From a virus, in the IMG/VR virus record IMGVR_UViG_3300050821_017219, positions 14,383 through 78,382 of that record: a stretch of 64,000 bases of DNA; one strand, given 5' to 3'. Below are positions 34,239 through 54,984 of this stretch, piece by piece. Position numbers and translations under genes: made by a program. The notes under the pieces are model-generated. The model did no database searches. It was not told where the DNA came from and saw only the letters and a program-made list of their open reading frames with translations. Numbering within the stretch: position 1 is the first letter of the stretch; each line of letters starts with the position of its first letter.

Positions 34239-34252
34239 GCTACACTGACGCC

Positions 34253-36995: not shown

Positions 36996-37801
36996 ATACC
37001 ACCGTCACGTGCGTCTATCGCATCGCGCAAGGCGGCGCGGCGTTGACGACGCTTCAGTCGAAGGTCGCCGCCGTCGTCGTCAACTCTTCCATTCTGTCGA
37101 CGCTCGGCGCGCGTATCACGAGCGACGTCACTACCATCGCCGCCGGTTTCGCCATCCGAACCATCGTCTTTTCGATCGTGCCGACGGTCGCAGCCGGCGC
37201 GACGGCAGCGCTCAACTCCAACGACTTCCTCTCCGGCGTGTCGGTCTTCTCGGCCGGCTCTGACTACATTCTGCCGCCCGTCGTCAAATTCGCTGGTGGA
37301 AACCCCTACAAAATCGCGTCGGCGCGCGCGACGTTGAAGGCCGTCGGCGTCAACGTCGTCGCTGGTGGCTCAGGCTATACCGCAGCGGCGGTCGCAACAG
37401 CCGTCGGTGCGATCAACCCCAACCATGACATCAAGCTCGGCCAAGCCCCACCGAAGCCTGTCTTGATGACGTTGACGCTTGGCGGTGGCGGAGCCATCGT
37501 CGGCGTCGCCATCACCGATGCGGGCGCTAACTACGAAGGCGTTCCCTCGGTTGTCGTCACCGACGTCGTTGGGGGTGGAAGCGGCGCCATCATCGATCTG
37601 TCGATGGGCGTCAGCGCCGTCGATGTGATCTACCCCGGGCAAGGCTTCCAGGCGGTTCCGGCGTGTCAGCTGATCCCAGCCTTCCGTGTGATGTTCCCCG
37701 ACGGACCTTCGCAGGCGGCACCTTTCGCGAACCTCATGACGACGGCGATTGCGCAAGCAGTGATGACGCCGGTCGTTGCGGATGCGCCGGTGTTGTCATG
37801 A
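36992..37801 (+). CDS. Beta-repeat structural protein
   Basis: Four VxVxxxGxxY/F repeats (AGSDY, GGSGY, AGANY, PGQGF) as in virion/surface proteins. Confidence 0.6.
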   Translation: MNTTVTCVYRIAQGGAALTTLQSKVAAVVVNSSILSTLGARITSDVTTIAAGFAIRTIVFSIVPTVAAGATAALNSNDFLSGVSVFSAGSDYILPPVVKFAGGNPYKIASARATLKAVGVNVVAGGSGYTAAAVATAVGAINPNHDIKLGQAPPKPVLMTLTLGGGGAIVGVAITDAGANYEGVPSVVVTDVVGGGSGAIIDLSMGVSAVDVIYPGQGFQAVPACQLIPAFRVMFPDGPSQAAPFANLMTTAIAQAVMTPVVADAPVLS

Positions 37802-39303
37802 CGCGCGAAGATGACAACTACGACGAGCGAGACGACGATGACGGCGAAGGCGAGCCGCCTGAAGAAGTCGTCGAAGCCAAAACGAAGGCAATACCGCCGA
37901 AGAAGCGCAATCCGAAAGCGCGAAACGGCGTCGGTGGAGCGTTGGGTGGTGCGCCCGAAGATTCGCCGCGTGAAGCTGAGCTGCTCTGGCTGTGGATTCT
38001 CGCGCGACTTCCCAGCGAAGGCCGCTCCGCCTACGACGTGACCATCCAAGTCTTGCAGCTCGATCCACCCGCCTCAAACGGCCGCGCCTTCATGGTGGGA
38101 AGCTTCGGCGGTGGCGCAATCCGCGGCAGCGAAACTGTTGATCCGTCGCAGGCGTTGATCAGCTACGTCACCGACAACTTTCACATGCCGCGGTCTCAGT
38201 CGAGACAGTCGGTGACCTACCAGATCCGCTTCATCTGGGCATCGAACAGCCAGCAGATGAAGCGCGGCGAGCTGACGCTTCCCCCGCGCGACGAGATCAT
38301 CGCCGTTCGACAAGAAGAGGCGCGCCAGCGGCAGGCCAACGGCGAGCCGGTGACCCCCTACAACCCGCCGCCGATGCATCAGCAAGGCGTCGGTGTGCCG
38401 CAACCATGGCCGCAGCCGTTTGGCTTTCCGCCGTCTTACTACCCCCCGCCTGCCGGTGGCGATGCGCAGATGATGCCGCAGCTGCTGACGATGATGCAGG
38501 AGATGTGGCGCGCGCAGCTCGAAGGCCGCCCACCCAATCCCGCAGCTGCCGGTGTCGCTGCGCCACCACCCGCGCCTCTCAACGAAGACAGCATCGTACA
38601 GAAAACGACCGCCAGCGTCTTGATGGCGCTGCAGCAAGCCGGCATCTTGACGAAGCCAACCGCCGGTGTCGCCGCCGCAACGCCAACGCCTGCGGTCTCG
38701 CCTGCGTCGCCGGCTGCATCGAATCCATTCGCAGGCATGATGGAAAAAGCCGTCGGTCGCATGTTCGAGGCGGCCGTCGGTGAGGTGGAGAAAAGCGTCA
38801 AGAAGACCATCGCTGGCGTCGGCAAGCCGCAAGACGACGACTATTACTTCGACGACGATGACGATGGAAAGAAAGGCGGATCATCTTCGCCTGCATCTGC
38901 AGCCGTTGGCGTTGGCGCGCCACCGACACCGCCGAAAGAAGACGCCTTCGATCTGCCGTGGGCGACGAAGCCAGTCGCCGATGCGAAGTGGGGCGACGGC
39001 CGCCCAGTCGTCTACGCCGAAGACAAAGAGACCGGCAACTTCTCGTGGCAGGGCGCGCTCATGAGCAACCCCACCGTGCTCGAGAAGGGGATGGAAGCCG
39101 CGCAGGGTCTCGCCGGAGCGTTGACGAACATCGTGAAGCAGGTCGGCGCCAAAGCTTCCGCCGGCTTCGCGCAGGCGCCGCAGAATCCGCCGCCGCAGAT
39201 GACGCCGAAGACGGTTTCGATACCGCCTGCCGCAACGGTTGTGGCGGAGACGCCCGCGGGCGCGGTGGATGCGACGCCAAAGTCTTGGAAAGACGGCGAC
39301 TAG
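37798..39303 (+). CDS. Pro/Gln-rich multidomain protein with repeated GVG/GVA motifs (putative scaffold/assembly protein)
   Basis: ATGA coupling; six GV(G/A) motifs in low-complexity linkers. Confidence 0.65.
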   Translation: MTREDDNYDERDDDDGEGEPPEEVVEAKTKAIPPKKRNPKARNGVGGALGGAPEDSPREAELLWLWILARLPSEGRSAYDVTIQVLQLDPPASNGRAFMVGSFGGGAIRGSETVDPSQALISYVTDNFHMPRSQSRQSVTYQIRFIWASNSQQMKRGELTLPPRDEIIAVRQEEARQRQANGEPVTPYNPPPMHQQGVGVPQPWPQPFGFPPSYYPPPAGGDAQMMPQLLTMMQEMWRAQLEGRPPNPAAAGVAAPPPAPLNEDSIVQKTTASVLMALQQAGILTKPTAGVAAATPTPAVSPASPAASNPFAGMMEKAVGRMFEAAVGEVEKSVKKTIAGVGKPQDDDYYFDDDDDGKKGGSSSPASAAVGVGAPPTPPKEDAFDLPWATKPVADAKWGDGRPVVYAEDKETGNFSWQGALMSNPTVLEKGMEAAQGLAGALTNIVKQVGAKASAGFAQAPQNPPPQMTPKTVSIPPAATVVAETPAGAVDATPKSWKDGD

Positions 39304-39324
39304 CAGCTCTGCTACGATTGCGGT

Positions 39325-40665
39325 GTGACAACGACGCCGCATTGGCCGCAGGTAGTGGTGCCGCGCCGTGTCGGTGTCGCCGGTCTGACCGATTTTGAGG
39401 CGCACTTCGCGTCCGACCCCAACTTTGCGTCGGCGTGGAACGATGTCGGTGGCCAGCTCCTCGCCGAAGGCGCTAGCAGCTCGCAGGTCGACCAAGCGAA
39501 GACGTGGTTCGTCAACGCCGTCGAGGGAGCTGTCCCTGGGGTAACCGGCGACCAGGCCATCGCCTCCGCGAAGCAGCTCGTGCTGCTTGGGCAGACGGTC
39601 ATGGGCGCCGTCGCTACGGTGCAAGGTCTTCTCCAGACCGTCGAAAGTGGGTCGGTCCCACAAATTACGCAGGCGTTTACCGGCGTCTTGATCAGCCTCG
39701 GCGTCGGCACTGGGTTAGTCTCGGCCGGTATCGGCGCGGCCATCGCGCTCGGCATCTCCGTCGTGTTGGCGGCGCTTCAAGACCTTGGATTTTTTACTAG
39801 CAACGCCCCTCCGACATTTGACATCCCTGGGTGCGGCAAGTGGTACTGGGTGCCGGACTACCTCATCGGATGCATGGGCGTTCAAGCGAAGGGCGGCACT
39901 GCCAACGATCCGCTCTTGACGCAACCCTTTCATGTCGCGCCGGGCTCCCCCAACTGGCGGACGTTCCCGGTGCCGGGCAACATCATCCCATACGTCGAAG
40001 GCGCGGACAAAGAATGGTACGTCCCTGGGTTGGGGATGGTTGGCCACTGGAAGGGCATCTTCATCGACTACGGCGCCGTCGATGCAAGCGATGGGCGGCG
40101 GCCGATCGATCGCGCGTTTCCGAATTTTCGGCAGCTCGAAGCGGACAGCGGACCGGGAGCAAGCGACTTCCAGCGCGCGTTCGGTGGCGCATGGCGAAGC
40201 AACGCGGAGTATGCGTTCAACGGGTTGAAGCCGCAGCCAGACGAACAGGTGCTGCTCCATACCATTCGATTGTGGAACCGTTCGCACGATGGCCCCGCAG
40301 TTACGCTCGATCAAAGCAACGCGACCTACGCCAATTCGCTCGTCGACGCCGCCGTCAACAACGTGATGTCGAGTGACATCGGTTTGCTGTCTGGCCAAAG
40401 CTTGCTCGTCAACGCCGGTGGGTTGAAAACCCAAACGCCACGTGTCGTCACGCTGCATCTAGGCGGTAGTTTCGATTCAGCGACGTCGCCAACAACCGGC
40501 CTTATGTCGTCGACGGGTGGAAAAATTCTCGCGGGTACAGCTGCAATCGGCGGCGCCGCACTGCTCGGAAGCGCGGCGTACGCCTTCGCAAAGAAAGAGA
40601 GCATCGGCGCCGTCTGGAAGAACGTCTTCAAGACGGTGACGAAACCTCTGAGAGGTGGAAGATGA
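39325..40665 (+). CDS. Membrane-associated putative virion protein
   Basis: N-terminal TTPHWPQ..VGVAG; internal and C-terminal hydrophobic helices. Confidence 0.7.
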   Translation: MTTTPHWPQVVVPRRVGVAGLTDFEAHFASDPNFASAWNDVGGQLLAEGASSSQVDQAKTWFVNAVEGAVPGVTGDQAIASAKQLVLLGQTVMGAVATVQGLLQTVESGSVPQITQAFTGVLISLGVGTGLVSAGIGAAIALGISVVLAALQDLGFFTSNAPPTFDIPGCGKWYWVPDYLIGCMGVQAKGGTANDPLLTQPFHVAPGSPNWRTFPVPGNIIPYVEGADKEWYVPGLGMVGHWKGIFIDYGAVDASDGRRPIDRAFPNFRQLEADSGPGASDFQRAFGGAWRSNAEYAFNGLKPQPDEQVLLHTIRLWNRSHDGPAVTLDQSNATYANSLVDAAVNNVMSSDIGLLSGQSLLVNAGGLKTQTPRVVTLHLGGSFDSATSPTTGLMSSTGGKILAGTAAIGGAALLGSAAYAFAKKESIGAVWKNVFKTVTKPLRGGR

Positions 40666-40988
40666 GACGAAGACACGGTCGTAGAAATCCTTCGACGCAA
40701 ACGACGACGCTGCTGATCGCCGGTGGCGGTTTGGCGCTGCTCGGCGTTGGCGTCTACCTCTTCACGAAGAAGCCAGCGGCGGCGACAACGACGACTGCGA
40801 TCACGGCGACGTCACCAAATTCTCGACCGTTCGGTGACCCCGCCAACACGTCGAGCGTCGCGTTCGCGTGCAACACCTGCTGGAAGCTGAACGCACTCGG
40901 CCATCCGACGCAGGCGACGGCGTGGTGCACGAAATGCACCGCCAACGGTGGGGTAGTACCGCAAAGCGCTGCTCAGTTGTATACTTGA
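40662..40988 (+). CDS. Small membrane protein (RRNP + TM + Cys-rich domain)
   Basis: MRRRHGRRNP, TM LLIAGGGLALLGVGVYLF, CxxC pairs. Confidence 0.7.
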   Translation: MRRRHGRRNPSTQTTTLLIAGGGLALLGVGVYLFTKKPAAATTTTAITATSPNSRPFGDPANTSSVAFACNTCWKLNALGHPTQATAWCTKCTANGGVVPQSAAQLYT

Positions 40989-41036
40989 GGCGCCGGTAGT
41001 CATTTTTGACGGCGACGCAAGACGAAAAGATAAAAA

Positions 41037-41393
41037 ATGGCCGACATTTACGACACGCTGACCCCCGCCGACCAGGCAACGGTTCGCTCGAAGCTGCTCG
41101 CGATCGTGCAGTCGAAGCCCTGCCCGAACGTCGACGTGACAGGCATCACCACCGTCGACAGCCTCACCAGCGCGGACAATCGCGGCATCGCCATCGATTG
41201 CTTCCAGCAAGCGCACAAGGTTGGCGCCGTCGCAGGCGCGCTCGATCAGGCGACTTACAGCGCGCTCGTCGGATGGTGGCCCGCGCGGCCGTTGTGGCAG
41301 AAAGCGGCGATCGTCGGCGGAGGCGTCGCAGCGGTGGCGGTTGGATACCATCTCATGGCGAAGCGAAGCCGTCGGCGTCGGCTAAGTCGTTGA
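41037..41393 (+). CDS. Peptidoglycan-binding-like domain with C-terminal TM and basic tail
   Basis: AIDCFQQAHKV..VAGALDQATYSAL resembles PG_binding_1; TM followed by KRSRRRR. Confidence 0.6.
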   Translation: MADIYDTLTPADQATVRSKLLAIVQSKPCPNVDVTGITTVDSLTSADNRGIAIDCFQQAHKVGAVAGALDQATYSALVGWWPARPLWQKAAIVGGGVAAVAVGYHLMAKRSRRRRLSR

Positions 41394-41459
41394 TGTAAAC
41401 GTCTGAAATTTCAGACAATTTTCAACTTTCAAACGCAAAAACAACCAAACGAGACTCCG

Positions 41460-41858
41460 ATGACGAAGAAACATCAGACGTACATGATCGTTGGTGGCGT
41501 CGCGCTCGCGGCGCTCGCCGTCGGTGGCATCGCCTACGCGCGCATGAAGGCGGCAGCGCCTCCAGTTCCTGCCGGTCAGCTTCCCGCCGGGACCCCCGCG
41601 ACCACTTTCACCGCCGGTACGAAGTACACCTTCGCCGCCGTCCTCCCCGCGGGCGCGACCGACCAGGCGACGCTCGTGACGATGCTCCACACCGCAGGGT
41701 GGCAGACGCCTGCGGTCATCTTCTTCGGTCCGACGAACACCGGAACGATTCCGACCGGTCTCGAGGCCAACACGTCGGGGTACGTCGCGACGGGCATTTG
41801 GCAGGGCCCCGCCACACCGGTACCGGCGGGTGTCATCGCTGTCGTGTCGCCTCCGTGA
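41460..41858 (+). CDS. N-terminally anchored small membrane protein
   Basis: TM IVGGVALAALAVGGIAY followed by a beta domain. Confidence 0.7.
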   Translation: MTKKHQTYMIVGGVALAALAVGGIAYARMKAAAPPVPAGQLPAGTPATTFTAGTKYTFAAVLPAGATDQATLVTMLHTAGWQTPAVIFFGPTNTGTIPTGLEANTSGYVATGIWQGPATPVPAGVIAVVSPP

Positions 41859-42259
41859 TCGACGCTGCGGTCTCCTCACAGCTTTCGACGCTTCGCTTTC
41901 GGCAAAGTCTCGTCGACGCTGCGCCATCGCCCGGCGGCAGTAGCGAAATCGTCGCGCTCGTTCCGTTCAACTTCGCGACGACGACGTTGGTGCTCGGCCC
42001 AATCCACGCTGGGTGGGTCGTCAACGAGGTCGTCTACGACATCCTGACGCCCTTCGCTGGCGCAACGGCGCTGAAGTTCGGCACGTCGACCAACGCGAGC
42101 CTCTTCTTCGAGCTCGATACCCCCATCATCGGCATCGCGCAGCAGTACGTTTCTCCGCTCATCATCGTCGCTCCGATCAACGATATCCTGCTGTTGAACG
42201 TCAGCGGTGGCGCTTTGGCGGGCGCAGGTTTACTGTTCTACCGGATCTTCACGCCGTAG
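41855..42259 (+). CDS. Small beta-sandwich virion protein (paralogue of the 42270 C-terminal domain)
   Basis: GTGA coupling; motif match to the C-terminus of the next gene. Confidence 0.65.
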   Translation: MIDAAVSSQLSTLRFRQSLVDAAPSPGGSSEIVALVPFNFATTTLVLGPIHAGWVVNEVVYDILTPFAGATALKFGTSTNASLFFELDTPIIGIAQQYVSPLIIVAPINDILLLNVSGGALAGAGLLFYRIFTP

Positions 42260-42269
42260 GTAAGACCAG

Positions 42270-43085
42270 ATGGCGAACGCATTTCAACGACTTGCCGGCG
42301 TCATCGCCAACTTCTTCCAGATCGGCGGCCCCGCCGGCCCCGGCTGGAACGCGAACGGCGGCGCCATCGAAGGCCGCAACGCCGCCAATTCAGCGTTTGC
42401 GATCGTTCGGGGCGCGACCCCCGTCGGCGACAACGACCTGACGACGAAGACCTACGTCGATACGATCTTCAAGCCGATCCCCGTCTCGCTTCAGTTCAAC
42501 GGTGGCAGCGCGCTGCCGAGCAACAGCGGCACCGAGCAGTACTACGTCGTCACGACGACCGGGGTCAACGCGACCATCGGTCAAGTTCTCTGGGATGACG
42601 GGTCTGGCGTTGGAACGGTCACCGTCCTTCCCGCGAAGACGGGCAACGAGATCGTCACGACGGCTTCGTTCTCTGGCGGCACGATCACGCTTCAGTCGAA
42701 CCAAAACTACGTCTGGTCCGGTACGGCGTGGCTCAACATCTCCCCCTCGGTTGCTGGCGCGCTCCTCTGCATCCGTCTGCCGATCACCAATGCGGCATCG
42801 CAGAGCTCCGCCACAACGATCCCCGCCAACGCCGTCGTCGCGCGAGCGCTCCTCAACATCACGACCCCCTACTCCGGTGGCGCGACCATCTCCGTTGGCC
42901 AAACAGGATCGACGGCGCTGCTGATGGCGACGGGTGACAACGTCGCGACGCTCGCCAACATCTACGACGCCCCCCAAGACACCGCGTGGGGCGCGAGCGC
43001 GCTGGCGTTGCTCGTGACCGTCGGTGGCGCGCCAGCTGCAGGTGCTGGCTTCGCGGTTGTATATTACAGCATCCCGCAGGTTTGA
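42270..43085 (+). CDS. Beta-rich virion (spike/vertex-like) protein
   Basis: Strong C/G-ending codon bias, Gly/Thr/Ala-rich. Confidence 0.7.
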   Translation: MANAFQRLAGVIANFFQIGGPAGPGWNANGGAIEGRNAANSAFAIVRGATPVGDNDLTTKTYVDTIFKPIPVSLQFNGGSALPSNSGTEQYYVVTTTGVNATIGQVLWDDGSGVGTVTVLPAKTGNEIVTTASFSGGTITLQSNQNYVWSGTAWLNISPSVAGALLCIRLPITNAASQSSATTIPANAVVARALLNITTPYSGGATISVGQTGSTALLMATGDNVATLANIYDAPQDTAWGASALALLVTVGGAPAAGAGFAVVYYSIPQV

Positions 43086-43107
43086 CGCATGCAACTTCGA
43101 GTCTGAG

Positions 43108-43362
43108 ATGAGCGGTTTCAACAACAACAGCGGCACGACGCAGTCGTCTTTCGAGATCGGCGGCCCCGCCGGACCGGCGCTGCAAAGCGATCCGCTCGTT
43201 CAAGCGATCAATCTGCTCGACCCGACGGGAACGATCCTTCTCGCACTGCGAGCCGGTTGGGCCGTCAACCCCAACGACGTCGTGACGCTCGTGCGGCTGC
43301 AATCGATTCTGAATCCACCGCCGCCGTTGGGCGATCCATGGGCGTCTTCTTCCGCAGGATGA
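43108..43362 (+). CDS. Small protein paralogous to the 42270 N-terminal domain
   Basis: FEIGGPAGP vs FQIGGPAGP; shared DNA agatcggcggccccgccgg. Confidence 0.6.
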   Translation: MSGFNNNSGTTQSSFEIGGPAGPALQSDPLVQAINLLDPTGTILLALRAGWAVNPNDVVTLVRLQSILNPPPPLGDPWASSSAG

Positions 43363-43375
43363 TGGGGATGACATC

Positions 43376-44107
43376 GTGAGCCAACAAGGACCGACCGGCT
43401 TCATCACCTCGCAGGGGCTGCCCAACCCGAAGCTGCCCGATGGCCAAGGCGTGTTGGCTCGTGTTGGACCGCACCGTGAGGTCTACACGAACCTTGTGCT
43501 GCCCGACTTCAAGACGTCGGCGGACGAGGGGAGCTACTTCACGGGAACGAACGCAACGTTTGGCGCGGCTATAGCCGCAGCAAATCAAGCGGCCTTCTCG
43601 GCGACGTCGGCTATCTTCACCTTCTTGAACAAGGCTGGCGTCGGTGGGCCGCGAACCTATCTCGACTACATCCGTTTGATTTGCACGGCAGCTGGAACAG
43701 CGTCGGCGAGTATGCAAATCGGCGTCGTTACCGACGCGATCGTACGTGGAAGCGCCGGAACCCCCGTGACGTTGGTGTCGCCCAACCAAGACGCTGGTGT
43801 CGGCGCGAACACGCAAGTGCTCTACACCCCGACGGTAGCGGCTGCAGGTCTTGCTGCGAGAAACGTCGATCGCGCTTGCGCCAAAGGCGCAGGACTCGCG
43901 ATAGGCGATGAAATTCTGCTCGTCTTCGGAACCGTCGAGAAGTCAGCGAGCGCCGCATTCGCTGCAACAGCCGGGCGATTCGTGGTGCCGATGGCTCCAG
44001 TCATCCTTGGGCCTGGCAGCGTTCAGAGCGCCGTCATTCATGCGTGGTTTCCGAGTATCACCGCAGCAGCATCGTTCGAGTTCGCCGTTGGTCTCCTCGA
44101 ACGTTGA
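43376..44107 (+). CDS. Beta-rich putative minor capsid/vertex protein
   Basis: Jelly-roll-like alternating pattern, ends ASFEFAVGLLER. Confidence 0.6.
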   Translation: MSQQGPTGFITSQGLPNPKLPDGQGVLARVGPHREVYTNLVLPDFKTSADEGSYFTGTNATFGAAIAAANQAAFSATSAIFTFLNKAGVGGPRTYLDYIRLICTAAGTASASMQIGVVTDAIVRGSAGTPVTLVSPNQDAGVGANTQVLYTPTVAAAGLAARNVDRACAKGAGLAIGDEILLVFGTVEKSASAAFAATAGRFVVPMAPVILGPGSVQSAVIHAWFPSITAAASFEFAVGLLER

Positions 44108-44143
44108 TTGTCAAGCGCTTTCGCTGCTAGACTGACACCCATG
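44104..44143 (+). promoter_or_regulatory. Sigma70-type leaderless promoter (representative example)
   Basis: TTGATT-18nt-(TGc)TAGACT-7nt-ATG, no SD. Confidence 0.5.
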
Positions 44144-44617
44144 GCGAAGAAACCCGAGCAAGACCGCGCTCTCATCATCGTCGGCATCGTCGGCGCTGCT
44201 GCGGTCGTCGGAGGGGCGCTCTACTTCGCCTTCACGTCGCAGCCGAAGACAGCGACGGCATCGCAGGCCAACCCCACCCCGACGCCGCCAACGACCGACA
44301 CCGCTTCGGCGACTCCGCCAACGCAAGCGCCGTCGTCGACGACTTTCGCGATGCAAGTCACCGGCGACACGTCGATCGCGCTGAAGAGCGGTGAATCTGT
44401 CGCGCTTTCGTTGCCAACCGTTCCTGCGCCAGCGGCGATGTGGCAGGTCGTCATGGAGAACCACGACGGTCGTGCGGAATACACGGTGGTGGATGCGACG
44501 CACTTCAACGTGATCGCAGAGATGCCCGGCGTTTCGGTGCTGCGGTTCACCCCCATCAGCGCGCAGGGCGGATCGATCGGCCTTCCTGGCCTCAACATTA
44601 CGCTGTCGATCAGCTGA
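44141..44617 (+). CDS. TM-anchored Ig-like protein
   Basis: N-terminal TM, Pro/Thr linker, IALKSGESVALSL beta domain. Confidence 0.7.
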   Translation: MAKKPEQDRALIIVGIVGAAAVVGGALYFAFTSQPKTATASQANPTPTPPTTDTASATPPTQAPSSTTFAMQVTGDTSIALKSGESVALSLPTVPAPAAMWQVVMENHDGRAEYTVVDATHFNVIAEMPGVSVLRFTPISAQGGSIGLPGLNITLSIS

Positions 44618-45039
44618 TGAGCGCCTGGACGGGCATCATCATCGGCGGTCTCGTCGGTGGAGGCTTAGGTTTCGTCGCGACGAAATTCTTGTTGAAGAAG
44701 CCTGACGCTGGCGTCATCGGCGCTGCCGCAGCTGCGGGCGCGCTCGCCGGTGGCGCGTTGACCGCGACCCCCGCAACCGCCTCGTCGTCACCGACGTTGC
44801 ACATGCTCTTGTTGGCGCACGGCGACACCGCCCTCGCGACGAAGATCGGCGACGTCGTCGATTTGCTTCCCGCCGCTGGTTTGACGGTGAGCGCCATCGA
44901 CGCGCATGGCAGCGACGCCATCGTCGTTGCGTCGGTCAATCCCGCCACCGTCAATGCGGTGAAGCTCGGCGGTGCGCTGCTGGCGGTGACGCTTTCCGAC
45001 GCGTCGAAGGTCAACGTCAAAATCACCGTCGCCGCTTGA
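44617..45039 (+). CDS. Membrane protein with Ig-like C-terminal domain
   Basis: Gly-zipper helices then LATKIGDVVDLL...VNVKITVAA. Confidence 0.7.
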   Translation: MSAWTGIIIGGLVGGGLGFVATKFLLKKPDAGVIGAAAAAGALAGGALTATPATASSSPTLHMLLLAHGDTALATKIGDVVDLLPAAGLTVSAIDAHGSDAIVVASVNPATVNAVKLGGALLAVTLSDASKVNVKITVAA

Positions 45040-45078
45040 CTTTCGACGCTAGCGGCGTCTTGCGGTAGACTGAACGCC

Positions 45079-45345
45079 ATGGACATCAATGGCGGCGCTA
45101 AGGTAGGGCTCGCGACGGTGCTCGGAGGCGGCGCCGGTCTCGTCTTCGGGTTCTTCGTCGGTGAAATCCTCGACGTGAAACGTCCCGGTCAAATGTCGCT
45201 GGCGTTGGCGGCGCTGGGTGGGCTCACCGGCGCGATGGTCGGCGGAACCTTTGTCGCTCCGACGCCTGCGTCACCGACAACTCCGGCTCTGCAGCCCATC
45301 GCTTCGACGGCCGTGACGACTCCGCCGACGCCTGCGACGCCGTAA
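45079..45345 (+). CDS. Small 2-TM Gly-zipper membrane protein
   Basis: Two hydrophobic helices, Pro/Thr tail. Confidence 0.7.
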   Translation: MDINGGAKVGLATVLGGGAGLVFGFFVGEILDVKRPGQMSLALAALGGLTGAMVGGTFVAPTPASPTTPALQPIASTAVTTPPTPATP

Positions 45346-45349
45346 AAAG

Positions 45350-47653: not shown

Positions 47654-47660
47654 GCGTCGA

Positions 47661-48125
47661 ATGATCATCGTCAAAGGGAAGGCAGTCAGCTTCGACATGG
47701 CGAACGGCGACGAAATCGATGCGCCAGCGCGCTCGGCGATGTTGCACGATCCGCGCGGCAAATTCTGGCGTCGAAATTCTATTCTTGTTGCGCCATTCAA
47801 ACGCGGCGGCGGTGGTGAAGTCGACGGCGACAGCGACTCGAAAGACTATCTCGGCCGAACGCATCTGACGCGCGTCGGTGATGTACCGCTTCCCCCGAAA
47901 GAGTTGTCGGCCTGGACGTACGAAGGCGAAGTGAGCGAGATTTGGTACACGCGTCACGGCGCAAAGTACGGCGGCAAGCGGTTCCGCCACGCGTTCAACA
48001 AGTCGTTGCTCGGCCGGCTCGTGAAGGGAACCGGCAAGGCGCGGCTGTACAGCCGTGGTAGTCTCTACCGATTGGAGCTACCGCGCGGCGCCATTGTCGA
48101 TGGGAGAGGATTTTTATGGCCGTGA
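47661..48125 (+). CDS. Basic hypothetical protein (putative virion/core protein)
   Basis: GEVSEIWYTR...KRFRHAF; located in the structural block. Confidence 0.6.
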   Translation: MIIVKGKAVSFDMANGDEIDAPARSAMLHDPRGKFWRRNSILVAPFKRGGGGEVDGDSDSKDYLGRTHLTRVGDVPLPPKELSAWTYEGEVSEIWYTRHGAKYGGKRFRHAFNKSLLGRLVKGTGKARLYSRGSLYRLELPRGAIVDGRGFLWP

Positions 48126-48637
48126 TCTGGAAGTCTGTCGTCGGTTACGAGGGGTTGTACGACGTCTCTGACGAAGGACAGATCCGGCGTGTGGCGCCGG
48201 GGCGACGTACACACCCCGGGCGTATCGTTGTCGGTGGCGTCTCGAAGGGGCGTTACCGCATCGTCAAACTCTATCGAGGAACGACGAAGAGCGACTTCCG
48301 CGGGTTCTCCGTTCACGGTCTCGTCGCGGCAGCCTTTCTTGGCCCGCGTCCGGAAAGGGGCGAGGTGAACCACAAGAACGGCATCAAGACGGACAACAGG
48401 CTCGAGAATTTAGAGTACACAACCCGCCTCGGAAACGCGCGCCACGCAGCAGTGAACGGGCTGCTCCGAAACGGCGAACGAGTCGTCGGCTCCAAGCTTA
48501 CGGCCGACAATGTTCGCTCCATCCGCGCTCTGTCCGCTTTTGGCGTTCCGAAGCGACGGATCGCGAAGATGTTCGGCATCGCGCATTCGACCACGCAAAG
48601 CATCATCGACCGTCGTTGGTGGAAGCACGTCGCATGA
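48116..48637 (+). CDS. NUMOD4-HNH homing endonuclease
   Basis: WKSVVGYEGLYDVSDEGQIR, VHGLVAAAFLG, VNHKNGIKTDNRLENLEY. Confidence 0.92.
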   Translation: MAVIWKSVVGYEGLYDVSDEGQIRRVAPGRRTHPGRIVVGGVSKGRYRIVKLYRGTTKSDFRGFSVHGLVAAAFLGPRPERGEVNHKNGIKTDNRLENLEYTTRLGNARHAAVNGLLRNGERVVGSKLTADNVRSIRALSAFGVPKRRIAKMFGIAHSTTQSIIDRRWWKHVA

Positions 48638-50166
48638 TCGATTATTCGCGCATGATTGACGCCAGCCGCAACGCGCCCGAACACGCGGCATCTGCGCCCG
48701 TCTTCTACGAAACAGCGAAGACGAAGACGCGCGCGCGTAGCCGTCGTTTGACAAAGCGCAAGAAACAAGCTTCACTTACAAAAGCGCGCGACCGGAAATC
48801 CACGAACCGTCGTCGTCGAAGCACCCCAGGGAAGGCTGCATCGATGGCAAAGCGAAGAATGTCGAGAAAGCAGCGCGCAGCGGCGCTGAAGAACCTCAAG
48901 AAGGCTCGCTCCGCCCGTCGGAGCAAAGCTTCTCGGCGCGGGATGCGCGTTCGGCTTCATCGGAAGTCGCCCCGTCGGCGCCGCTACATGACCGGCGGTG
49001 GTGTGAAGACGAAGCGTCGTCGTCGCCGCAAGGCCAAGCCGGAAGCAGAAGCAACACCGAAGCGTCGTCGGCGTAAGTCGGGCGGCAAGCGGAAGTCGGC
49101 CAAGCGAGTCGCGGCTGGCAAGAAGGCCGCTCGTACGCGCAAGCGCCGTCACTCCCGCAAGGGTGGCGCACCGAAACGCCGTCGTCGTCGGTCGCGCAAA
49201 GCCTCGGCGGCTCCCCGGCGGCGGCGTCGGCGTTCACGTCGGTCGTCTCCCCGTCGTCGTCGGCGCAGCCGCAAGACCGGTCGGGCGATGTCGATGCGAC
49301 TCCCCCGTCGGGCGCGCAAGGTCTACGTCGTCGCCGCCGAGAAGCGCCGTCGTCGTGGACGCGGCCGTCGTCGTCACGGCGCGATGGAAAATCCGCTCTC
49401 TGGCGTCGAGCTGTTCGTCGGAAGCCTCTTCGGGTTGACCGGCTTCGCCATCGGCGATCTCACCGACCGCCTCATCGCGACCCACGCGTTGACGTTGAAG
49501 AGCGCCGCGACCACCACCACGCCGGCCCTCTACGCCGACAACCCCCCGACGACCGGCAGCTACGCTGGCCTCTTCAATCCGACGGCGATCACTTCGCCGA
49601 TGAACCTCCCCCGATGGGCGAACGCGGTCGGTGCTCCGGCGCTGATCTTCACCGTCGCACACTTCGTCAAGTCGCCGGTCGCGCGCAGTTCGATGCAGTT
49701 CTTCGCCTTCGGTTACGGCGTCCGTGGTGTCGGCAAAGGCATCATGGACCTCATGGCCAAAGTGACGACCAGCTTCGGCCTCGGTCAGCGCCTCTACGAC
49801 GGCGAGATGCGAGCGCAGGTGCTCAAGGCCAACAGCGGCAGCAACCAAGCGGCAGCGCTTGCGAACTTGCCCGCCGCTGGCCTCGGTCAACCGGCTCGGC
49901 AATTGGCGGTAGCGCCTTGCGCCAATTGCGGCAATTGCGCGAAATGCAAAGCAGCAGCGGCACCGAGCGGCGTGGGTTGGCCTTCGCAGCCCCGCGAAAT
50001 CACCAGCCAGTCGACGCAGACGCAACCGCAGGCTCCCGTATCCGCGACTGCCCCACCGCGTCAGCCCCCGCCTCCCCCCAACGCTCCTCCGATTCGACAG
50101 CAGTCGTTTCTCACCGGCGCAGCGGCGCATCCTACCTACAAGAAGTGGGGCGGCTACGATTTGTGA
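48634..50166 (+). CDS. Arg/Lys-rich protamine-like protein with C-terminal hydrophobic domain (putative DNA-condensing core protein); alternative start 48844
   Basis: About 180 aa dominated by R/K/S with SPRRRR-type motifs, then AMENP, hydrophobic helices and CxxCxxCxxC. Confidence 0.75.
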   Translation: MIDYSRMIDASRNAPEHAASAPVFYETAKTKTRARSRRLTKRKKQASLTKARDRKSTNRRRRSTPGKAASMAKRRMSRKQRAAALKNLKKARSARRSKASRRGMRVRLHRKSPRRRRYMTGGGVKTKRRRRRKAKPEAEATPKRRRRKSGGKRKSAKRVAAGKKAARTRKRRHSRKGGAPKRRRRRSRKASAAPRRRRRRSRRSSPRRRRRSRKTGRAMSMRLPRRARKVYVVAAEKRRRRGRGRRRHGAMENPLSGVELFVGSLFGLTGFAIGDLTDRLIATHALTLKSAATTTTPALYADNPPTTGSYAGLFNPTAITSPMNLPRWANAVGAPALIFTVAHFVKSPVARSSMQFFAFGYGVRGVGKGIMDLMAKVTTSFGLGQRLYDGEMRAQVLKANSGSNQAAALANLPAAGLGQPARQLAVAPCANCGNCAKCKAAAAPSGVGWPSQPREITSQSTQTQPQAPVSATAPPRQPPPPPNAPPIRQQSFLTGAAAHPTYKKWGGYDL

Positions 50167-50324
50167 TTGATTCGATAATCGTTTCGCTGTTCGACGGACG
50201 TATCGAAGGCAACGAAAAACGCGAGACTTACTTCTCTCCACGACGCTGCGACGATCGACACCCACACAAGAGACGACGATAAGAGCCTGAGAGGTTACTC
50301 GTCATCTCTGGAGTCGATCACCAA

Positions 50325-51692
50325 ATGGCTACGCAAATCGTTTCTCGACCCAGTCAGTTCAAGACGCGAGCGAAGATGCTCTCGCGCGCCGAGCGCGGCA
50401 TCGCTCTCGTCAAGGCCGTCGGAACCGGTCTTCCCATCGACGCGGCGAAGATCAAGGCGTCAGGGAATGACCCCCGGCGCGGCATGGGCGCCGTCCTCGA
50501 CCTCATCAAGGCGTCGAAGGAAAACCCCTGGTGGAACATGGACGTCGTCGAGCAGGTCCGTTGGACCCTCGGCGGACCCCAGACCAATCAGTCGATCACC
50601 GAAAACTTCGGTGCGACCATCGACTTGTTCGCTTCGGGGAAGTCGCCGGTCGACATCGACTTCGTCGAGACGACCATGGCGCAGCCTGGTCAGACGCAGA
50701 CCTTCTTCGTCGCCTGCTATGTCGGCTTCCACCTCGAGCCCGACCCCATGACGTTCACCCTCCGAGGGAACGCGTGGACGCATCCGACCGCGGCGGTCGC
50801 GAAGCCCCCGTCTCCCGACGTGTTCAGCGCGAACGACGTCGCCAACGGCGCGCTCGGCCCCGCCTTCGCCGGCACGCCGACGCAGACGATGCTTCCCGCG
50901 ATCATGGAGCACGGCTGGTGGCTCAACCGAGCCTTCTGGGAGCTCGTGCGCGCCTACAACTTCCGATGGAAGATCGGCCAGCACATCAACATCATGGACG
51001 AGCAGTTGCGCCACACGGCGTACATGCCCCCGAACGCTCAGGAAGGCAGCGCGTCGAGCTCGGAAGTGGATCCGTTCAATCTCATCAATCAGATGAACAC
51101 CCGCTACGACACGCTCGGAACGGCGCTCGACTTCCTCCCGATCGACTTCTTGAGGATCGGATCAGTCGGAAGCACGACCGTCAACAACGGCCGCTTCACG
51201 CCGAGCCGTGACTTCGATACCGTCGGCGTCACCTACGGTGGTTCCGACCTCCGAAGCATGCTGCGCGGCAACAGCGAGTTCCGCCAGCTGTGCGTTCCCT
51301 ACGTGATCGAGCCGGGCGTTCCCATCGGCATCTTCCTCCAGGAATGCGACAGCGTTCAGGCGGACATCATGCGCGCGCTGCTCAGCATCTCGCAGGTCGG
51401 CGGAAACTTCGGCGGATCGATTCCCCCGGCAGTCACCCCCGACGGCAACATCAACGGCGGCTTCACGAGCACGGGCGCCGCGGTCATGTTGGAGCGCACC
51501 CTCGACGGTGCAGACGTCCCCCAGCAGATCGACACCCAGCGCGTCATCTACAAGAGCGGCGTCGGCAAGATCACGCTGCCGATCAAGGGCTTCGAGGTCA
51601 CGAAGGATTGGTACAACCAACTCTCTTCGGATTCGGACATCCGAGACATCGTGCTCTCCGACTGCGGGATGCGATTCGCGGCCTACGGTTGA
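50325..51692 (+). CDS. Putative major capsid protein (non-HK97, possibly jelly-roll)
   Basis: Very strong C/G-ending codon bias by eye, GGAG RBS, beta-rich, follows the core-like protein; no HK97 signature seen. Confidence 0.5.
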   Translation: MATQIVSRPSQFKTRAKMLSRAERGIALVKAVGTGLPIDAAKIKASGNDPRRGMGAVLDLIKASKENPWWNMDVVEQVRWTLGGPQTNQSITENFGATIDLFASGKSPVDIDFVETTMAQPGQTQTFFVACYVGFHLEPDPMTFTLRGNAWTHPTAAVAKPPSPDVFSANDVANGALGPAFAGTPTQTMLPAIMEHGWWLNRAFWELVRAYNFRWKIGQHINIMDEQLRHTAYMPPNAQEGSASSSEVDPFNLINQMNTRYDTLGTALDFLPIDFLRIGSVGSTTVNNGRFTPSRDFDTVGVTYGGSDLRSMLRGNSEFRQLCVPYVIEPGVPIGIFLQECDSVQADIMRALLSISQVGGNFGGSIPPAVTPDGNINGGFTSTGAAVMLERTLDGADVPQQIDTQRVIYKSGVGKITLPIKGFEVTKDWYNQLSSDSDIRDIVLSDCGMRFAAYG

Positions 51693-51720
51693 TCGGAGCG
51701 CCGCCTAAAGGAGGCGTTTC

Positions 51721-52470
51721 ATGACTCAGCCGTTGATCACGATGACGGAAGAGCAGCTCCAAAGGCTGCTCGCTTCGTCGCAGAAAACCACAACCGGAGT
51801 GGCTGGCCCGCCCAAACAGCGCGTTCAAGGCTTCGGTTGCCCCGGCGATGGAAACCCGCAGCTCGACGCGGTCTACGCGATGCTTGCTGCGGGTAACCCC
51901 CGTCTCGCCTTGGCCCGCGCCCGCGGCGTGCCGTTCGCGCCGTTCTACATCAACATCCGCGCTACCTTTCCCGATACGGCCACCACGGTCGTGCCGAGCG
52001 TCGGTAGCGACGTGAAGATCTCGCAAGACACGCTCGTCAACGAGATGGTCGTGCGCATCTTCAACCGATCGTTGACGGCGAATCAGAACCAGTTCCAGGC
52101 GCAATCGGATTGGTACTACACGTGGCAGAGCGGCATCGAAGCAACGTTCGACATCCAAGGCGCACCCCGCCCGACGATTGCGGACCGCTTCACGCCCCTC
52201 GCCAATCTGCTCGACGCCTTCAACGGCTACAGCAAGCGCGCCGGTCACGGGTGGATCCTTACCTACCAGCAGCAGCTCTTCATGGCGTTCAACGCTACGA
52301 TCACGCTGCCGACGGCGCCCATCGAAGTCGTGTGCACGTTCGCCTGCGAGACACCGGTGTCGCAAGCGTTTACGCGCATGTCCAATAGCGAAGCCATCGC
52401 GTCGCTGCGGAGCGAATTCGGTGTCGAGATCGCAGACGCCTACGAGCAACAGGCGCTTCTCTACGGTTGA
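51721..52470 (+). CDS. Putative second capsid protein (beta-rich)
   Basis: AAGGAGG RBS, strong codon bias, N-terminal GVAG/GFG motifs. Confidence 0.45.
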   Translation: MTQPLITMTEEQLQRLLASSQKTTTGVAGPPKQRVQGFGCPGDGNPQLDAVYAMLAAGNPRLALARARGVPFAPFYINIRATFPDTATTVVPSVGSDVKISQDTLVNEMVVRIFNRSLTANQNQFQAQSDWYYTWQSGIEATFDIQGAPRPTIADRFTPLANLLDAFNGYSKRAGHGWILTYQQQLFMAFNATITLPTAPIEVVCTFACETPVSQAFTRMSNSEAIASLRSEFGVEIADAYEQQALLYG

Positions 52471-52475
52471 TCTGA

Positions 52476-53327
52476 ATGCGCTCTCTCGCCGAAAAAGCGT
52501 CGCTCGGCGCCGAGACGGGAAGCCGCCGCGTCTTTGAAATTTCAACGTCAGGAATTGACGAAAATCTTCAGAGTCTCGGCGGCGATCCGTTTGGTGGGTC
52601 GTCGTACGTCGGGTTGCGTGTTCCGACGTTGGCGACGCCATCGCTGCCCAACGGCGGCGGTCGATATTTGTTCAACCTCGCGTCGTTTTCGATCGCGACT
52701 GGCATCAAGGCGAGAATCGTCGGCTACCGCCAGCTGTTGACGCTCGGCGCCGTCATCACCGCCGCCGGCAGCGAAACAGCGGCGCGCTTCGTCGAGATGG
52801 AGGTCACGACGCCGACGTTTCGTCTACCCGACGGCAACGTCAGCTGGCACATTCATCGCCTCGGCCCGCCGAACAGCCAAGGCTTTCCGCGTGGCATCGC
52901 CGACAAGACTGACTTGCGCAGCTTCAAGAAATACTGGTGTGAAAATCCTGCGCTGCTCTACCAGAGCTACGCGATTCCCGCTGGCAACGCGTTCTACCCC
53001 GACTTGACGGCCTATACGCCACCGAATGGCGGCAAGCCGTGGGGTGTTGCGTTACGCGCGGGCGAACAAGCAACGTTTTACGATTTGCGAACCGAGTGGC
53101 GTACGCACGGCGGTTGGCATTCGCTCGACGTCGAGCTGGATGGACCAGACACCGTCTGCTTCTTCGCGTCTGTGAAGCAAAGCGTTGGCGCATCAGAAGC
53201 CGGTGCGTTGGCTGCGATTCCGAATGGGATGCCGGAAGAGCAATTCGTCAGCGCTTTTGCGGCGAGCGTGACCGGAGCAATCTACTGGCGCGTTGCGGGC
53301 GCGCTGATGGTGGAGGTACGTCCGTGA
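52476..53327 (+). CDS. Putative capsid-associated beta-rich protein
   Basis: Ends YWRVAGALMVEV like a terminal jelly-roll strand. Confidence 0.45.
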   Translation: MRSLAEKASLGAETGSRRVFEISTSGIDENLQSLGGDPFGGSSYVGLRVPTLATPSLPNGGGRYLFNLASFSIATGIKARIVGYRQLLTLGAVITAAGSETAARFVEMEVTTPTFRLPDGNVSWHIHRLGPPNSQGFPRGIADKTDLRSFKKYWCENPALLYQSYAIPAGNAFYPDLTAYTPPNGGKPWGVALRAGEQATFYDLRTEWRTHGGWHSLDVELDGPDTVCFFASVKQSVGASEAGALAAIPNGMPEEQFVSAFAASVTGAIYWRVAGALMVEVRP

Positions 53328-53977
53328 GATGGTCGGCCGCTCGCCAAGGTCGCCGTAGCTATTATCGCGCCGAGAGCTCGAAGGGCTATTACCGCATCGA
53401 ACATCGCCCGAGCGGTTGGGTCGTCGACATGACTATACACAACGGGCGTGATCATGTCATCGGAACATTCTCATCACTTGCCGGAGCCAAAACAGCTGCC
53501 TCGCAGCATGATCGAGGGTTTATGAGTCGTCGTCGTAGAAGCCGTCGTCGCCACCACGCTGCAGAAGCGAACCCCATCTCGTCGTCGACCAAGAAGTGGC
53601 TTGTCATCGGTGGCCTCACCGCAGTTGCCGGAGTCGGTCTCTACCTCTACATGAAGAAGATGTCGGCCTTGACGCAGATGCCGATGCCTGCGGCGCTACC
53701 GCCCGGTACTGCGCCGATCAACCTAACGCTGTCGCCCGGCAACCTGTCGGCGGTCACACTCAGCGCCGGCAACAAGGCCGCGTTGAGCCTCTTCGCGCCG
53801 CAGGGCTCAACGTTGCAGGTGATGAACTGGAACCCCGTCGCGCCGCTCGCTCCGGCGACGACGTCGAACTACGAAGTCGTCGCGGCGACGCCAGGCAACT
53901 CGACCGTCACCGCGACCTACAAAGACGCGTCGGGCGCAACGCAGACGGCGACCATCCCCATCGTCGTCACCGCTTAG
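53324..53977 (+). CDS. Small domain + Arg-rich + NP motif + TM + Ig-like protein (alternative start 53522)
   Basis: GGAGG-GTG start; SRRRRSRRRHHAAEANP, TM WLVIGGLTAVAGVGLYLYM. Confidence 0.65.
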   Translation: MRWSAARQGRRSYYRAESSKGYYRIEHRPSGWVVDMTIHNGRDHVIGTFSSLAGAKTAASQHDRGFMSRRRRSRRRHHAAEANPISSSTKKWLVIGGLTAVAGVGLYLYMKKMSALTQMPMPAALPPGTAPINLTLSPGNLSAVTLSAGNKAALSLFAPQGSTLQVMNWNPVAPLAPATTSNYEVVAATPGNSTVTATYKDASGATQTATIPIVVTA

Positions 53978-53983
53978 ATTTCA

Positions 53984-54400
53984 ATGTCAACGGCGATCGT
54001 CAAATTCAACCATGTCGATCGTCGCATCGGCGTTGGCGATCCGCTGACTGACGCGGGCGCAGCTCTCGCGCAGGCGATGATAGCGTTGCAAGCGGGTGTC
54101 GCTTCGTTGCCGGCGAATGATTTGCTGACGTCGCAGCTGTCGACGCAAGTCGCCGCAGTCGCTACGGCGCTCGGCGGTTACATCGCGCAGGTCGGCGCGC
54201 TCGAGACGAGCCTAGCGGCGACGCAACATCAACTCGAGTTATGCCAAGCCGCGCAAGCGACGCCGACGACACCGGTTGGCGCAGCGACAACGACTCCGAC
54301 GGCTGGCGTGTCGCCGTCGGCCGCAAGCTTCATCGCCGTCGGTAGCGCGCTTCTAGGCGGCGTCGCCGGCTACGCGGTTCGTGGTAAGATGAAACGCTGA
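53984..54400 (+). CDS. Coiled-coil protein with C-terminal TM
   Basis: N-terminal RRIGVGDPLTD; C-terminal TM followed by RGKMKR. Confidence 0.7.
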   Translation: MSTAIVKFNHVDRRIGVGDPLTDAGAALAQAMIALQAGVASLPANDLLTSQLSTQVAAVATALGGYIAQVGALETSLAATQHQLELCQAAQATPTTPVGAATTTPTAGVSPSAASFIAVGSALLGGVAGYAVRGKMKR

Positions 54401-54413
54401 AGAAAGCCGAATC

Positions 54414-54929
54414 ATGATGCAATCAACAACGCCGCATTGGCCGCAACCCCCGCAACACCATCACGTCGGTGTCGGCGCCGTCAACCAAGGCTTGACCGAT
54501 GCTGCGCAAGCGGTGGTCAACTTCTTCGCGGCGAATGCGTGCACTCGTGCATCAATCCCCGAAGTCGCGTCGTTTCAAGCGACGTACAACGGAAGCGGGA
54601 TGCCAGGGCATCTCACCGTCGACGGACAGTACGGCGGCAACACCGAGCGCGCATTGCAGATCGTGCTCAACAATGCCCCCGCGGCTGGTGGTGGTGGTCC
54701 AGTGCAAGCTGTACCTCCGAACTGCTTCGGTATGGCGGTGCCTGATACTCCGGCGTTGGATCCGTCAACACCGACAGCGCCAACCGCGCCGGCAACGACT
54801 ACAACGACGACGACAACTACGTCAACCCCTTCGACGATGTCACCGTGGATCATCGGCGGTGCTGCAGCTGTCGTCGCCGGTGGCGTCGGCTACGCCGTCT
54901 ACCGCGCGCGCAAACGCCGTCGCGGCTAA
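54414..54929 (+). CDS. Peptidoglycan-binding-domain protein with C-terminal TM and basic tail
   Basis: VASFQATYN...LTVDGQYGGNTERAL (PG_binding_1), Thr linker, TM, RARKRRRG. Confidence 0.75.
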   Translation: MMQSTTPHWPQPPQHHHVGVGAVNQGLTDAAQAVVNFFAANACTRASIPEVASFQATYNGSGMPGHLTVDGQYGGNTERALQIVLNNAPAAGGGGPVQAVPPNCFGMAVPDTPALDPSTPTAPTAPATTTTTTTTTSTPSTMSPWIIGGAAAVVAGGVGYAVYRARKRRRG

Positions 54930-54984
54930 GCGACGAAGACGTATCTGAAGACGCATTCCAAATCCAACAGCCGAAGACAAAACG

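Follow-up and report, generated by a model that had tools for sequence, protein, structure and literature searches.

A conserved G-Φ-G motif in virion-protein arms, leaders and linkers, and its possible reading by a virus-encoded transglutaminase-like protease

In T4-like phages, adenovirus, poxvirus and African swine fever virus, particle assembly centres on maturation proteases whose cleavage code can be read, and those of T4 and phiKZ are serine proteases of the herpesvirus-assemblin type, which cut after Glu (L/I-x-E or S/A/G-x-E). No description was found in the literature of a transglutaminase-like or cysteine protease, or of a proteolytic-processing system, associated with capsid maturation in jelly-roll or membrane-containing phages. 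Here, a stretch of 64,000 nucleotides (the window) of IMG/VR virus record IMGVR_UViG_3300050821_017219 was analysed, from base 14383 to base 78382; the record is complete, with 78,382 bases and direct terminal repeats. Its virion block (36435-55464) comprises about 24 genes, all on one strand and many with a single N- or C-terminal hydrophobic segment in their products, in which a short motif recurs, G-Φ-G, where Φ is the hydrophobic middle residue and the strict form was counted as G[VLIMF]G. With moderate confidence, and judging from sequence, this motif is read as the recognition or cleavage signal of a virus-encoded maturation protease, the transglutaminase-like product of 45350-47653.

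Several described systems were compared with this locus. In the available part of PMC9026906, a single protease (T4 gp21, and also phiKZ gp175 and SPN3US gp245) cuts many head proteins at a short motif, T4 gp23 loses an N-terminal propeptide of 65 residues and the scaffold is cut into several fragments. According to the same part of that source, propeptides of the T4 type carry redundant sites, the protease bears its own motif, and the capsid-targeting sequences (CTS) of the T4 internal proteins IPI-III are N-terminal leaders of 10-19 residues, common to unrelated bodies, which direct these proteins into the particle before being cleaved off. Each of these gp21/CTS features, as far as that source describes them, has a putative, sequence-level counterpart in this virus. 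In contrast to T4, here a transglutaminase-like enzyme with a Cys-His-Asp triad goes with a G-Φ-G motif, and among the products of the virion block that were scanned none was recognisable as a tailed-phage head protein.

The adenovirus protease (AVP; adenain, MEROPS C5) offers another likeness. In the part of PMC4246237 available, it is a cysteine protease maturing a DNA virus, with precursors that include Arg-rich core and membrane-active proteins, and it cuts at sites in which Gly is key, (M/I/L)XGG↓X and (M/I/L)XGX↓G (the arrow marks the cut), one of which, IVGL↓G, contains G-L-G. However, no Peptidase_C5 match was found here in Pfam scans of the window protein, of six orthologues (E up to 1) or of 36 family members (E up to 0.01). 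The hydrophobic P4 of adenovirus sites (Met, Ile or Leu two positions before the first Gly), which the first-pass annotation of the window had brought in as a parallel, was not seen either, only 17% of residues at that position being hydrophobic over nine sites. Moreover, the triad order of AVP differs from that of the Cys-His-Asp enzyme, and the capsid candidate described below carries two putative sites, unlike the adenovirus hexon, which AVP is not known to cut.

Among sequence-specific enzymes of the same superfamily as the one found here, LapG (transglutaminase fold, C93) cuts between two alanines of a repeated motif, in the available part of PMC4694147, and the lasso-peptide B2 leader peptidases (C96) remove a leader that must first be recognised, in that of PMC10885120. 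However, neither family model matched here (LapG/BTLCP included), Transglut_core being the sole peptidase or transglutaminase model matched in six orthologues at E up to 1, and the double-alanine motif of LapG has no counterpart, with AΦA occurring at 0.94-fold of expectation. The motifs differ as well (Ala-Ala, or Thr at -2, versus G-Φ-G), LapG and B2 are cellular rather than virion enzymes, and no separate leader-recognition domain was identified here. Finally, C39 papain-like cysteine peptidase domains, again in the available part of PMC10885120, remove short leaders ending in GG, GA or GS, which resembles the Ala or Ser that follows the second Gly here in 56% of site-weighted cases; in contrast, no C39 match was found, the leaders lack an amphipathic helix motif and any coupling to an ABC (ATP-binding cassette) exporter, and the motif also lies deep inside proteins.

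The recurrence of the motif was compared with chance in 24 structural-block proteins (5952 amino acids). The first-pass annotation had described a broader pattern, G-(V/L/M/F)-(G/A), and all the 16 motifs and three leaders that it listed were found in place and as written, except that TGLSG reads G-L-S-G and falls outside that pattern. The broad pattern G[VLMF][GA] occurred 45 times, a weak excess over the 30.1 occurrences obtained when whole proteins were shuffled (p 0.0045) and the 34.4 obtained with local shuffles of 15 amino acids (p 0.032), and 31 versus 22.4 times when membrane segments were masked (p 0.041). The excess was carried by GVG, found 18 times versus 6.2 expected from the 15-residue local shuffles (z 5.1) and ranking second of 179 tripeptides, behind RRR, which comes from the core protein. 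In contrast, G[LMF][GA] was not enriched (16 versus 18-20 expected). With membrane segments masked, a comparison that the first-pass annotation had itself proposed, the excess remained in structural proteins only (GVG, 14 versus 3.8 expected), as non-structural proteins presented none, with 19 versus 18.4 for G[VLIMF]G and 9 versus 5.8 for GVG (p 0.12). Furthermore, the nine-base pattern GGNGTNGGN appeared 18 times in frame, while the two alternative frames of that strand held it 2 and 4 times, and because of this frame bias the effect is placed at the protein level and a DNA-level motif was ruled out.

Related loci gave a clearer picture of which pattern is concerned. A total of 38 distinct related loci were compared, of which the 16 long enough to hold several genes, some of them near-duplicates of each other, were used for counting; their genes, like those of the three complete genomes mentioned below, were called by a crude caller based on third-codon-position G+C (GC3), with some starts and frames mis-called, so that the counts are approximate, and each was set only against shuffled versions of the sequences it came from. 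G[VLIMF]G was found 343 times versus 189.1 expected (1.81-fold), with z of at least 1.4 in all 16 loci, whereas the control patterns AΦA, GΦA, AΦG, PΦP, SΦS, G[STNQ]G and G[DEKR]G were flat (0.84-1.12). Since GΦA was among the flat controls, the motif is G-Φ-G and not G-Φ-A, and the third-position G/A of the pattern first written was too broad. Moreover, in three related complete genomes the excess was confined to the virion block (69 versus 40.2 expected), with none outside it (97 versus 87.4). The middle residue is mostly Val in this genome, and in relatives mostly Leu, followed by Val, Phe or Met. The recurrence of the motif is confirmed, though in a form narrower than first written.

Alignments with homologues locate the motif in the following proteins and sites:

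37798-39303, plus strand: scaffold-like protein of 501 amino acids, acidic and Pro-rich (aligned with 10 homologues)
38386-38394, plus strand: site at residue 197 of the scaffold-like protein (G-Φ-G in 8 of 11)
38551-38559, plus strand: site at residue 252 of the same protein (7 of 11, plus 4 with G-x-A)
38815-38823, plus strand: site at residue 340 of the same protein (10 of 11)
37927-37935, plus strand: loosely conserved site at residue 44 of the same protein (NGVGG; exact column in 1 of 9, a nearby motif in 6 of 9)
48634-50166, plus strand: Arg-rich core protein with a hydrophobic middle (alignment of 28 sequences)
49879-49887, plus strand: core-protein site AGLGQ (28 of 28)
49969-49977, plus strand: core-protein site SGVGW (GVG-[WY]-P in 19 of 28)
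50325-51692, plus strand: candidate major capsid protein of 455 amino acids (alignment of 121 sequences)
50481-50489, plus strand: capsid-candidate arm site G53-Φ-G55 (117 of 121)
50421-50429, plus strand: second capsid-candidate arm site G33-x-G35, followed by x-P-P-D (G33 in 119 and G35 in 114 of 121), missed by the first-pass annotation
51721-52470, plus strand: virion protein of 249 amino acids (alignment of 35 sequences)
51796-51804, plus strand: site TGVAG of the 51721 protein (G-x-G in 29 of 35, plus 4 with G-x-A)
51829-51837, plus strand: site QGFGC of the 51721 protein (G-x-G in 31 of 35, plus 4 with G-x-A; Cys follows in 22)

The Gly columns are conserved at 73-100%, while the 15-residue flanks present only 15-43% pairwise identity and the position between the glycines can hold L, V, F, M or I. 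By these alignments, most of the listed motifs are conserved short linear motifs, lying in leaders and linkers that are themselves poorly conserved, across at least eight families of virion proteins. In the scaffold-like protein, the sites typically read G-Φ-G-A-P-P within proline-rich linkers. In the capsid candidate, the middle residue of the G53 site is L in 80 sequences, F in 19, M in 7, V in 4, I in 4, A in 2 and T in 1, with S (80), A (20) or D (9) as the next residue, and at least one extra G[VLIMF]G lies upstream in 81 of the 121 arms. Both sites of the 51721 protein fall within its indel-rich N-terminal 40-60 residues; a lipobox reading of its G-[FL]-G-C was rejected by inspection, as no hydrophobic signal segment precedes it and 9 of 31 sequences have S, F or A instead of the Cys. 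The GLGQ at residue 382 of the core protein was not conserved (5 of 28). Two other conserved virion families, 52476 (30 homologues) and 47661 (21 homologues), lack the motif, which therefore is not a general compositional feature. The same short motif is thus found on several virion proteins, conserved among relatives in eight families and absent from two others.

The residues flanking the motif were counted over the nine conserved sites, considering only sequences with a G-x-G at most 4 residues away from the aligned column. The middle residue was L in 44%, V in 22%, F in 10% and M in 8% of cases, and the motif was followed by a small residue (68%) and then by Pro (41%). Basic residues accounted for 18-22% two to three positions upstream, acidic residues for 1-8% upstream and 20-24% four to five residues downstream, and Gln did not exceed 9% at any upstream position. 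Such an asymmetry of the flanks resembles that at a protease site.

In three tail-anchored proteins the motif closes a short N-terminal leader:

39325-39381, plus strand: leader of 19 residues of a 446-residue tail-anchored membrane protein (39325-40665), with TTPHWPQ and then RRVGVA
54414-54476, plus strand: leader of 21 residues of a 171-residue tail-anchored protein (54414-54929), with TTPHWPQ and then HHHVGVG
53984-54400, plus strand: tail-anchored protein of 138 amino acids with the leader ...RRIGVGDPLTD (GVG at 54029-54037)

The 39325 protein begins with MTTTPHWPQVVVPRRVGVAGLTD and the 54414 protein with MMQSTTPHWPQPPQHHHVGVGAVNQGLTD, so that the TTPHWPQ leader is common to both despite their different bodies, as had been noticed on first reading. 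The orthologues of 39325 in the loci L002, L003 and L004 retain the leader, in the form x-H-W-P-Q, 0-13 residues and then G-Φ-G-A-G-L-x-D-F. Among 16 database homologues of 39325, 12 have HW in their first 25 residues and 10 have a strict G[VLIMF]G within 40 residues, versus 0.9 expected, and the distant homologue P0136, which is leaderless, starts at M-A-D-F, aligned to the L-T-D-F just past the site. For 54414, a G[VLIMF]G stands in the first 65 amino acids of all 16 database homologues, where 1.8 would be expected, and HW within the first 25 residues of 11 of them, some presenting a different leader or two sites; the window's own proteins (P0121 and P0138) were excluded from these leader counts. 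Furthermore, the leader MT(Q)STTPHWPQ...VGVG was also found on P0150, P0152 and P0137, with bodies unlike 39325 or 54414, the first two having a second G-F-G three residues after the first motif. For 53984, only a few relatives were found, one in L007 with ...PPVGVGKSQTD ahead of a near-identical C-terminal anchor and an N-terminus in L002 with ...HRGFGSAAVDL.

The HWPQ-GΦG leader thus appears, from these comparisons, to be a portable module on at least three different protein bodies, as a short N-terminal leader common to unrelated bodies was found in the 39325 family, the 54414 family, P0150/P0152 and P0137. The two HWPQ leaders in this genome share 17 identical bases, and a recent copying between the 39325 and 54414 genes is possible. 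Type IV pilin-like and double-glycine bacteriocin leaders were also considered and rejected, with no hydrophobic helix after the site and no C39 match. As a separate observation, the body of 54414-54929 contains ...LTVDGQYGGNTERAL..., kept in all listed homologues, which we take, by eye, to be similar to a peptidoglycan-binding repeat; no Pfam match was found for this protein at E ≤0.01, and one homologue is named 'LPXTG-motif cell wall-anchored protein' by one source.

The enzyme proposed to read the motif, and its interruption, are placed as follows:

45350-47653, plus strand: membrane-anchored transglutaminase-like Cys-His-Asp protease, interrupted by an intein, with a C-terminal hydrophobic anchor (family alignment and triad)
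47090-47098, plus strand: GVG in the protease linker, at residue 581 (family alignment)
45719-46660, plus strand: intein (Pfam Hint and LAGLIDADG_3) directly before the predicted catalytic Cys

The triad motifs D-C-[DE], Q-x-H-[VIL] and D-P-S are kept, in the order Cys, His, Asp, in 16 of 16 intein-less orthologues, and C136, H168 and D184 are invariant in 36 diverse family members. Transglut_core (PF01841) matched 19 of those 36 at E ≤0.01 (best E 6.8e-08) and was the only peptidase or transglutaminase model matched in six orthologues (E up to 1), while the window's own intein-split protein gave no Transglut_core match in the Pfam scan. The nearest clusters in the feature-based protein Atlas were viral Transglut_core clusters (score 0.94), which serve as a lead only. 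In total, the superfamily comprises 2567 cluster representatives (E up to 0.001). From the best 150 of them, 120 were considered for the linker, after dropping 30 with no match to an H...DPS regular expression or with fewer than 120 residues after it. Of the 120, 102 have a G[VLIMF]G at a distance of 30-150 residues past the catalytic Asp, versus 38.7 +/- 4.7 expected (median offset 41), and 92 have a C-terminal hydrophobic segment. The enzyme therefore bears a putative site for itself in the stretch that joins its catalytic domain to its membrane anchor. The TGLSG just upstream of the linker GVG aligns with G-Φ-G in some relatives, and a few linkers read ...TTPHW-G-Φ-G..., like the leaders of the membrane proteins, whose tail-anchored layout the protease shares.

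Regarding the intein, intein-less orthologues are unbroken at ...GGDCDDL..., and the window protease without its intein reads ...G-D-C-D-D-L... at this point. The same insertion was found in locus L020, and 24 of the best 150 representatives match in two stretches, most of them splitting near the profile position of the catalytic Cys and being 460-880 amino acids long, which suggests that insertion before the catalytic Cys is recurrent. A GVG inside the intein was not conserved.

The reading of G-Φ-G as a maturation signal follows from its conservation in unrelated virion proteins, in arms, leaders and linkers, often in redundant copies and with asymmetric flanks, from its absence from some virion families and from non-virion genes, and from its presence in the protease and in a portable leader. 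A cut at G-Φ-G↓A/S would place the hydrophobic residue at P2, the position at which papain-like enzymes favour hydrophobic residues, while a cut at G-Φ↓G would parallel AVP. In this genome, the 45350-47653 enzyme would become active only after the intein is spliced from its catalytic Cys, its C-terminal helix would anchor it on the same membrane face as the tail-anchored substrates, and it would probably free itself by a self-cut just past the catalytic domain. It may then cut the capsid candidate twice in its N-terminal arm, take about 40 N-terminal residues off the 51721 protein, cut the scaffold-like 37798 protein into several pieces, clip the C-terminal part of the Arg-rich core protein and remove leaders of 17-21 residues from the membrane proteins. 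The HWPQ module could act as an exosite for the protease, as a particle-targeting peptide or as both.

Several results weigh against this reading. In this genome alone, the excess of the G-Φ-G class with membrane segments masked was modest (19 versus 11.6 expected, p 0.021), and a pattern-agnostic a-Φ-b test restricted to the window placed G-Φ-G outside the top 12 of 237 patterns; the case rests on relatives that share ancestry and whose counts are not independent events. Some motifs were not conserved, namely the GVGK at residue 365 of the core protein (2 of 28), the GVGK at residue 412 of the capsid candidate (13 of 121), and, in the scaffold-like protein, the second AGVAA (residue 290, 0 of 11) and VGVGA (residue 371, 1 of 11). 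As for the enzyme, Transglut_core matched five of six close relatives with E from 1.4e-4 to 0.022, the best at 22.6 bits versus a cut-off of 23, and the protease showed no sequence match to solved structures (PDB rows at chance level, best E 0.63) and none in NCBIfam. Moreover, a RadC match stands beside the virion block in three of three related complete genomes, exactly as the cysteine protease does, and the conserved Gly-x-Gly could be a hinge or docking turn instead. The first-pass proposal of cleavage sites for the transglutaminase-like protease, with removable leaders, is partly supported: it gains from the conserved motifs, the modular leader, the leaderless start of P0136 and the motif in the protease, and loses its G/A ending, its hydrophobic P4 and three motifs as sites, those of the scaffold-like protein at residues 290 and 371 and the exact NGVGG column.

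Other explanations were weighed against the same evidence. That G-Φ-G is never cut and acts as a flexible hinge or tight turn binding arms and leaders to the shell, the membrane or the scaffold, with HWPQ as a permanent address tag, is unlikely, although two invariant Gly around a variable hydrophobic residue would suit a turn inserted in a pocket and the arm region ahead of the capsid-candidate site, with its stretch ..P.D..KIKAA.., shows some conservation of its own, as in a functional arm. A single pocket binding the motif in so many contexts is hard to see, since it occurs in at least eight unrelated families and in Pro-rich linkers, often with two or more copies per arm, as well as in the linker of the protease itself, and P0136 starts just past the site. 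The sites might also be cut by another enzyme, either a host protease or the product of the gene directly upstream of the virion block:

34118-36391, plus strand: protein of 757 amino acids with a C-terminal RadC-like JAB domain (Pfam RadC, E 7.3e-17)

This is rather improbable. The domain keeps, by eye, an H-x-H...S-x-x-D metal motif, its neighbourhood with the block is constant, as noted above, and JAB/MPN enzymes cut after Gly-Gly tails. However, it is the cysteine protease that bears the motif in its own linker (102 of 120), in some members with the HW element too, and that has the tail-anchored layout of the membrane substrates; we know of no virion role of RadC.

Even less probable is a true transglutaminase activity of the enzyme, which would cross-link the proteins of the particle in the manner of Tgl in Bacillus spore coats, the Gln of HWPQ acting as an acyl-donor tag and G-Φ-G as a flexible spacer. 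The transglutaminase core is indeed the sole family match, this Gln is conserved in most leaders and P-Q precedes several of the 37798 sites, but the universal element, G-Φ-G, contains neither Gln nor Lys, most sites have no conserved Gln nearby, in line with the upstream frequencies given above, and HWPQ is absent from the sites of the capsid candidate, the 51721 protein and the core protein. In addition, the bacterial superfamily members of known activity cited in the available parts of PMC4694147 and PMC10885120 are hydrolases. Lastly, a recurrence without function, as a by-product of a composition rich in Gly, Ala and Val and of shared ancestry, has very little in its favour: Gly abounds in the structural proteins, relatives do not count as independent samples and the broad pattern first described exceeded local shuffles weakly (p 0.03-0.04), yet those 15-residue shuffles keep the composition and GVG still stood out, the seven controls were flat in 16 loci, the DNA pattern was frame-specific, the Gly columns were far better conserved than their flanks and the non-structural proteins had no excess.

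Homologues of the capsid candidate, which is the best-conserved product of the block and has its strongest third-position G+C (0.86), numbered 270, mostly on contigs of 60-80 kb, and none appeared in 50,697 phage records; no cultured relative was found. Neither these homologues nor the matches to the leader proteins bore informative names. The candidate itself had no match in Pfam, PHROGs or a PDB profile search, its best protein Atlas score being 0.79. Among 185,579 species genomes, the only relatives were a 2.3-kb contig (L041) in a metagenome-assembled genome (MAG) of Polyangiaceae and a 4.4-kb contig (L042) in one of Chloroflexota, both too short for a host to be assigned from them. Ten of the largest products of the block had no family in Pfam or PHROGs, except for the intein signature (Hint, LAGLIDADG_3) inside 45350-47653. 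The G+C content of the window ranges from 54 to 65% and no tRNA genes were found in it. The window further encodes a D5-type primase-helicase, a PD-(D/E)XK nuclease and a family-A DNA polymerase to which a uracil-DNA glycosylase domain is fused, together with collagen-like and pectate-lyase-like fibre proteins, a glycosyltransferase, a tyrosine integrase, a GroES-like protein and the RadC-like JAB protein.

Some side observations concern individual genes. Across the core protein and 27 homologues of it, a strongly conserved ...G-A-M-E-N-P-L... closes the Arg/Lys-rich tract and immediately precedes the first hydrophobic segment; this junction has no G-Φ-G and may have another function. Between two conserved virion genes, 48116-48637 is an open reading frame of 173 amino acids with homologues in only 2 of the 38 related loci, presumably resembling, by eye, a phage homing endonuclease. 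Just past the block, a small basic protein (55539-55844) with repeated ...GGKAAH/GRKGG... units is followed by the GroES-like (Cpn10) gene at 55865-56374, and this pair occupies the same place in several relatives (L004, L007, L018).

Taken as a whole, it is about an even matter that an undescribed lineage of temperate soil viruses of 70-80 kb has its own maturation system, in which a membrane-anchored transglutaminase-fold protease, self-freed at G-Φ-G and intein-gated in some genomes, would cut at least eight virion families at G-Φ-G-(A/S)-P, including the capsid arm, the Arg-rich core, the scaffold-like and the tail-anchored proteins, with a portable HWPQ leader serving as a targeting or exosite element. 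The principle is known; new are the predicted fold of the enzyme, the motif, the HWPQ leader and the lineage of the virus. No maturation code is known to have been described for membrane-containing tailless bacterial viruses, and none with a transglutaminase fold. If the code is real, it marks the boundaries between precursor and mature proteins in a family with 270 capsid-candidate homologues, and the pattern suggests an assembly path in which the shell protein has its arm trimmed, the scaffold is disposed of and leaders guide the membrane proteins. The portable leader with its cut site, for loading cargo into particles, and a new sequence-specific protease are candidate tools. If this reading is true, the principle of a protease code plus removable leader would have been invented independently three times, in this lineage as well as in T4-like phages and adenovirus.

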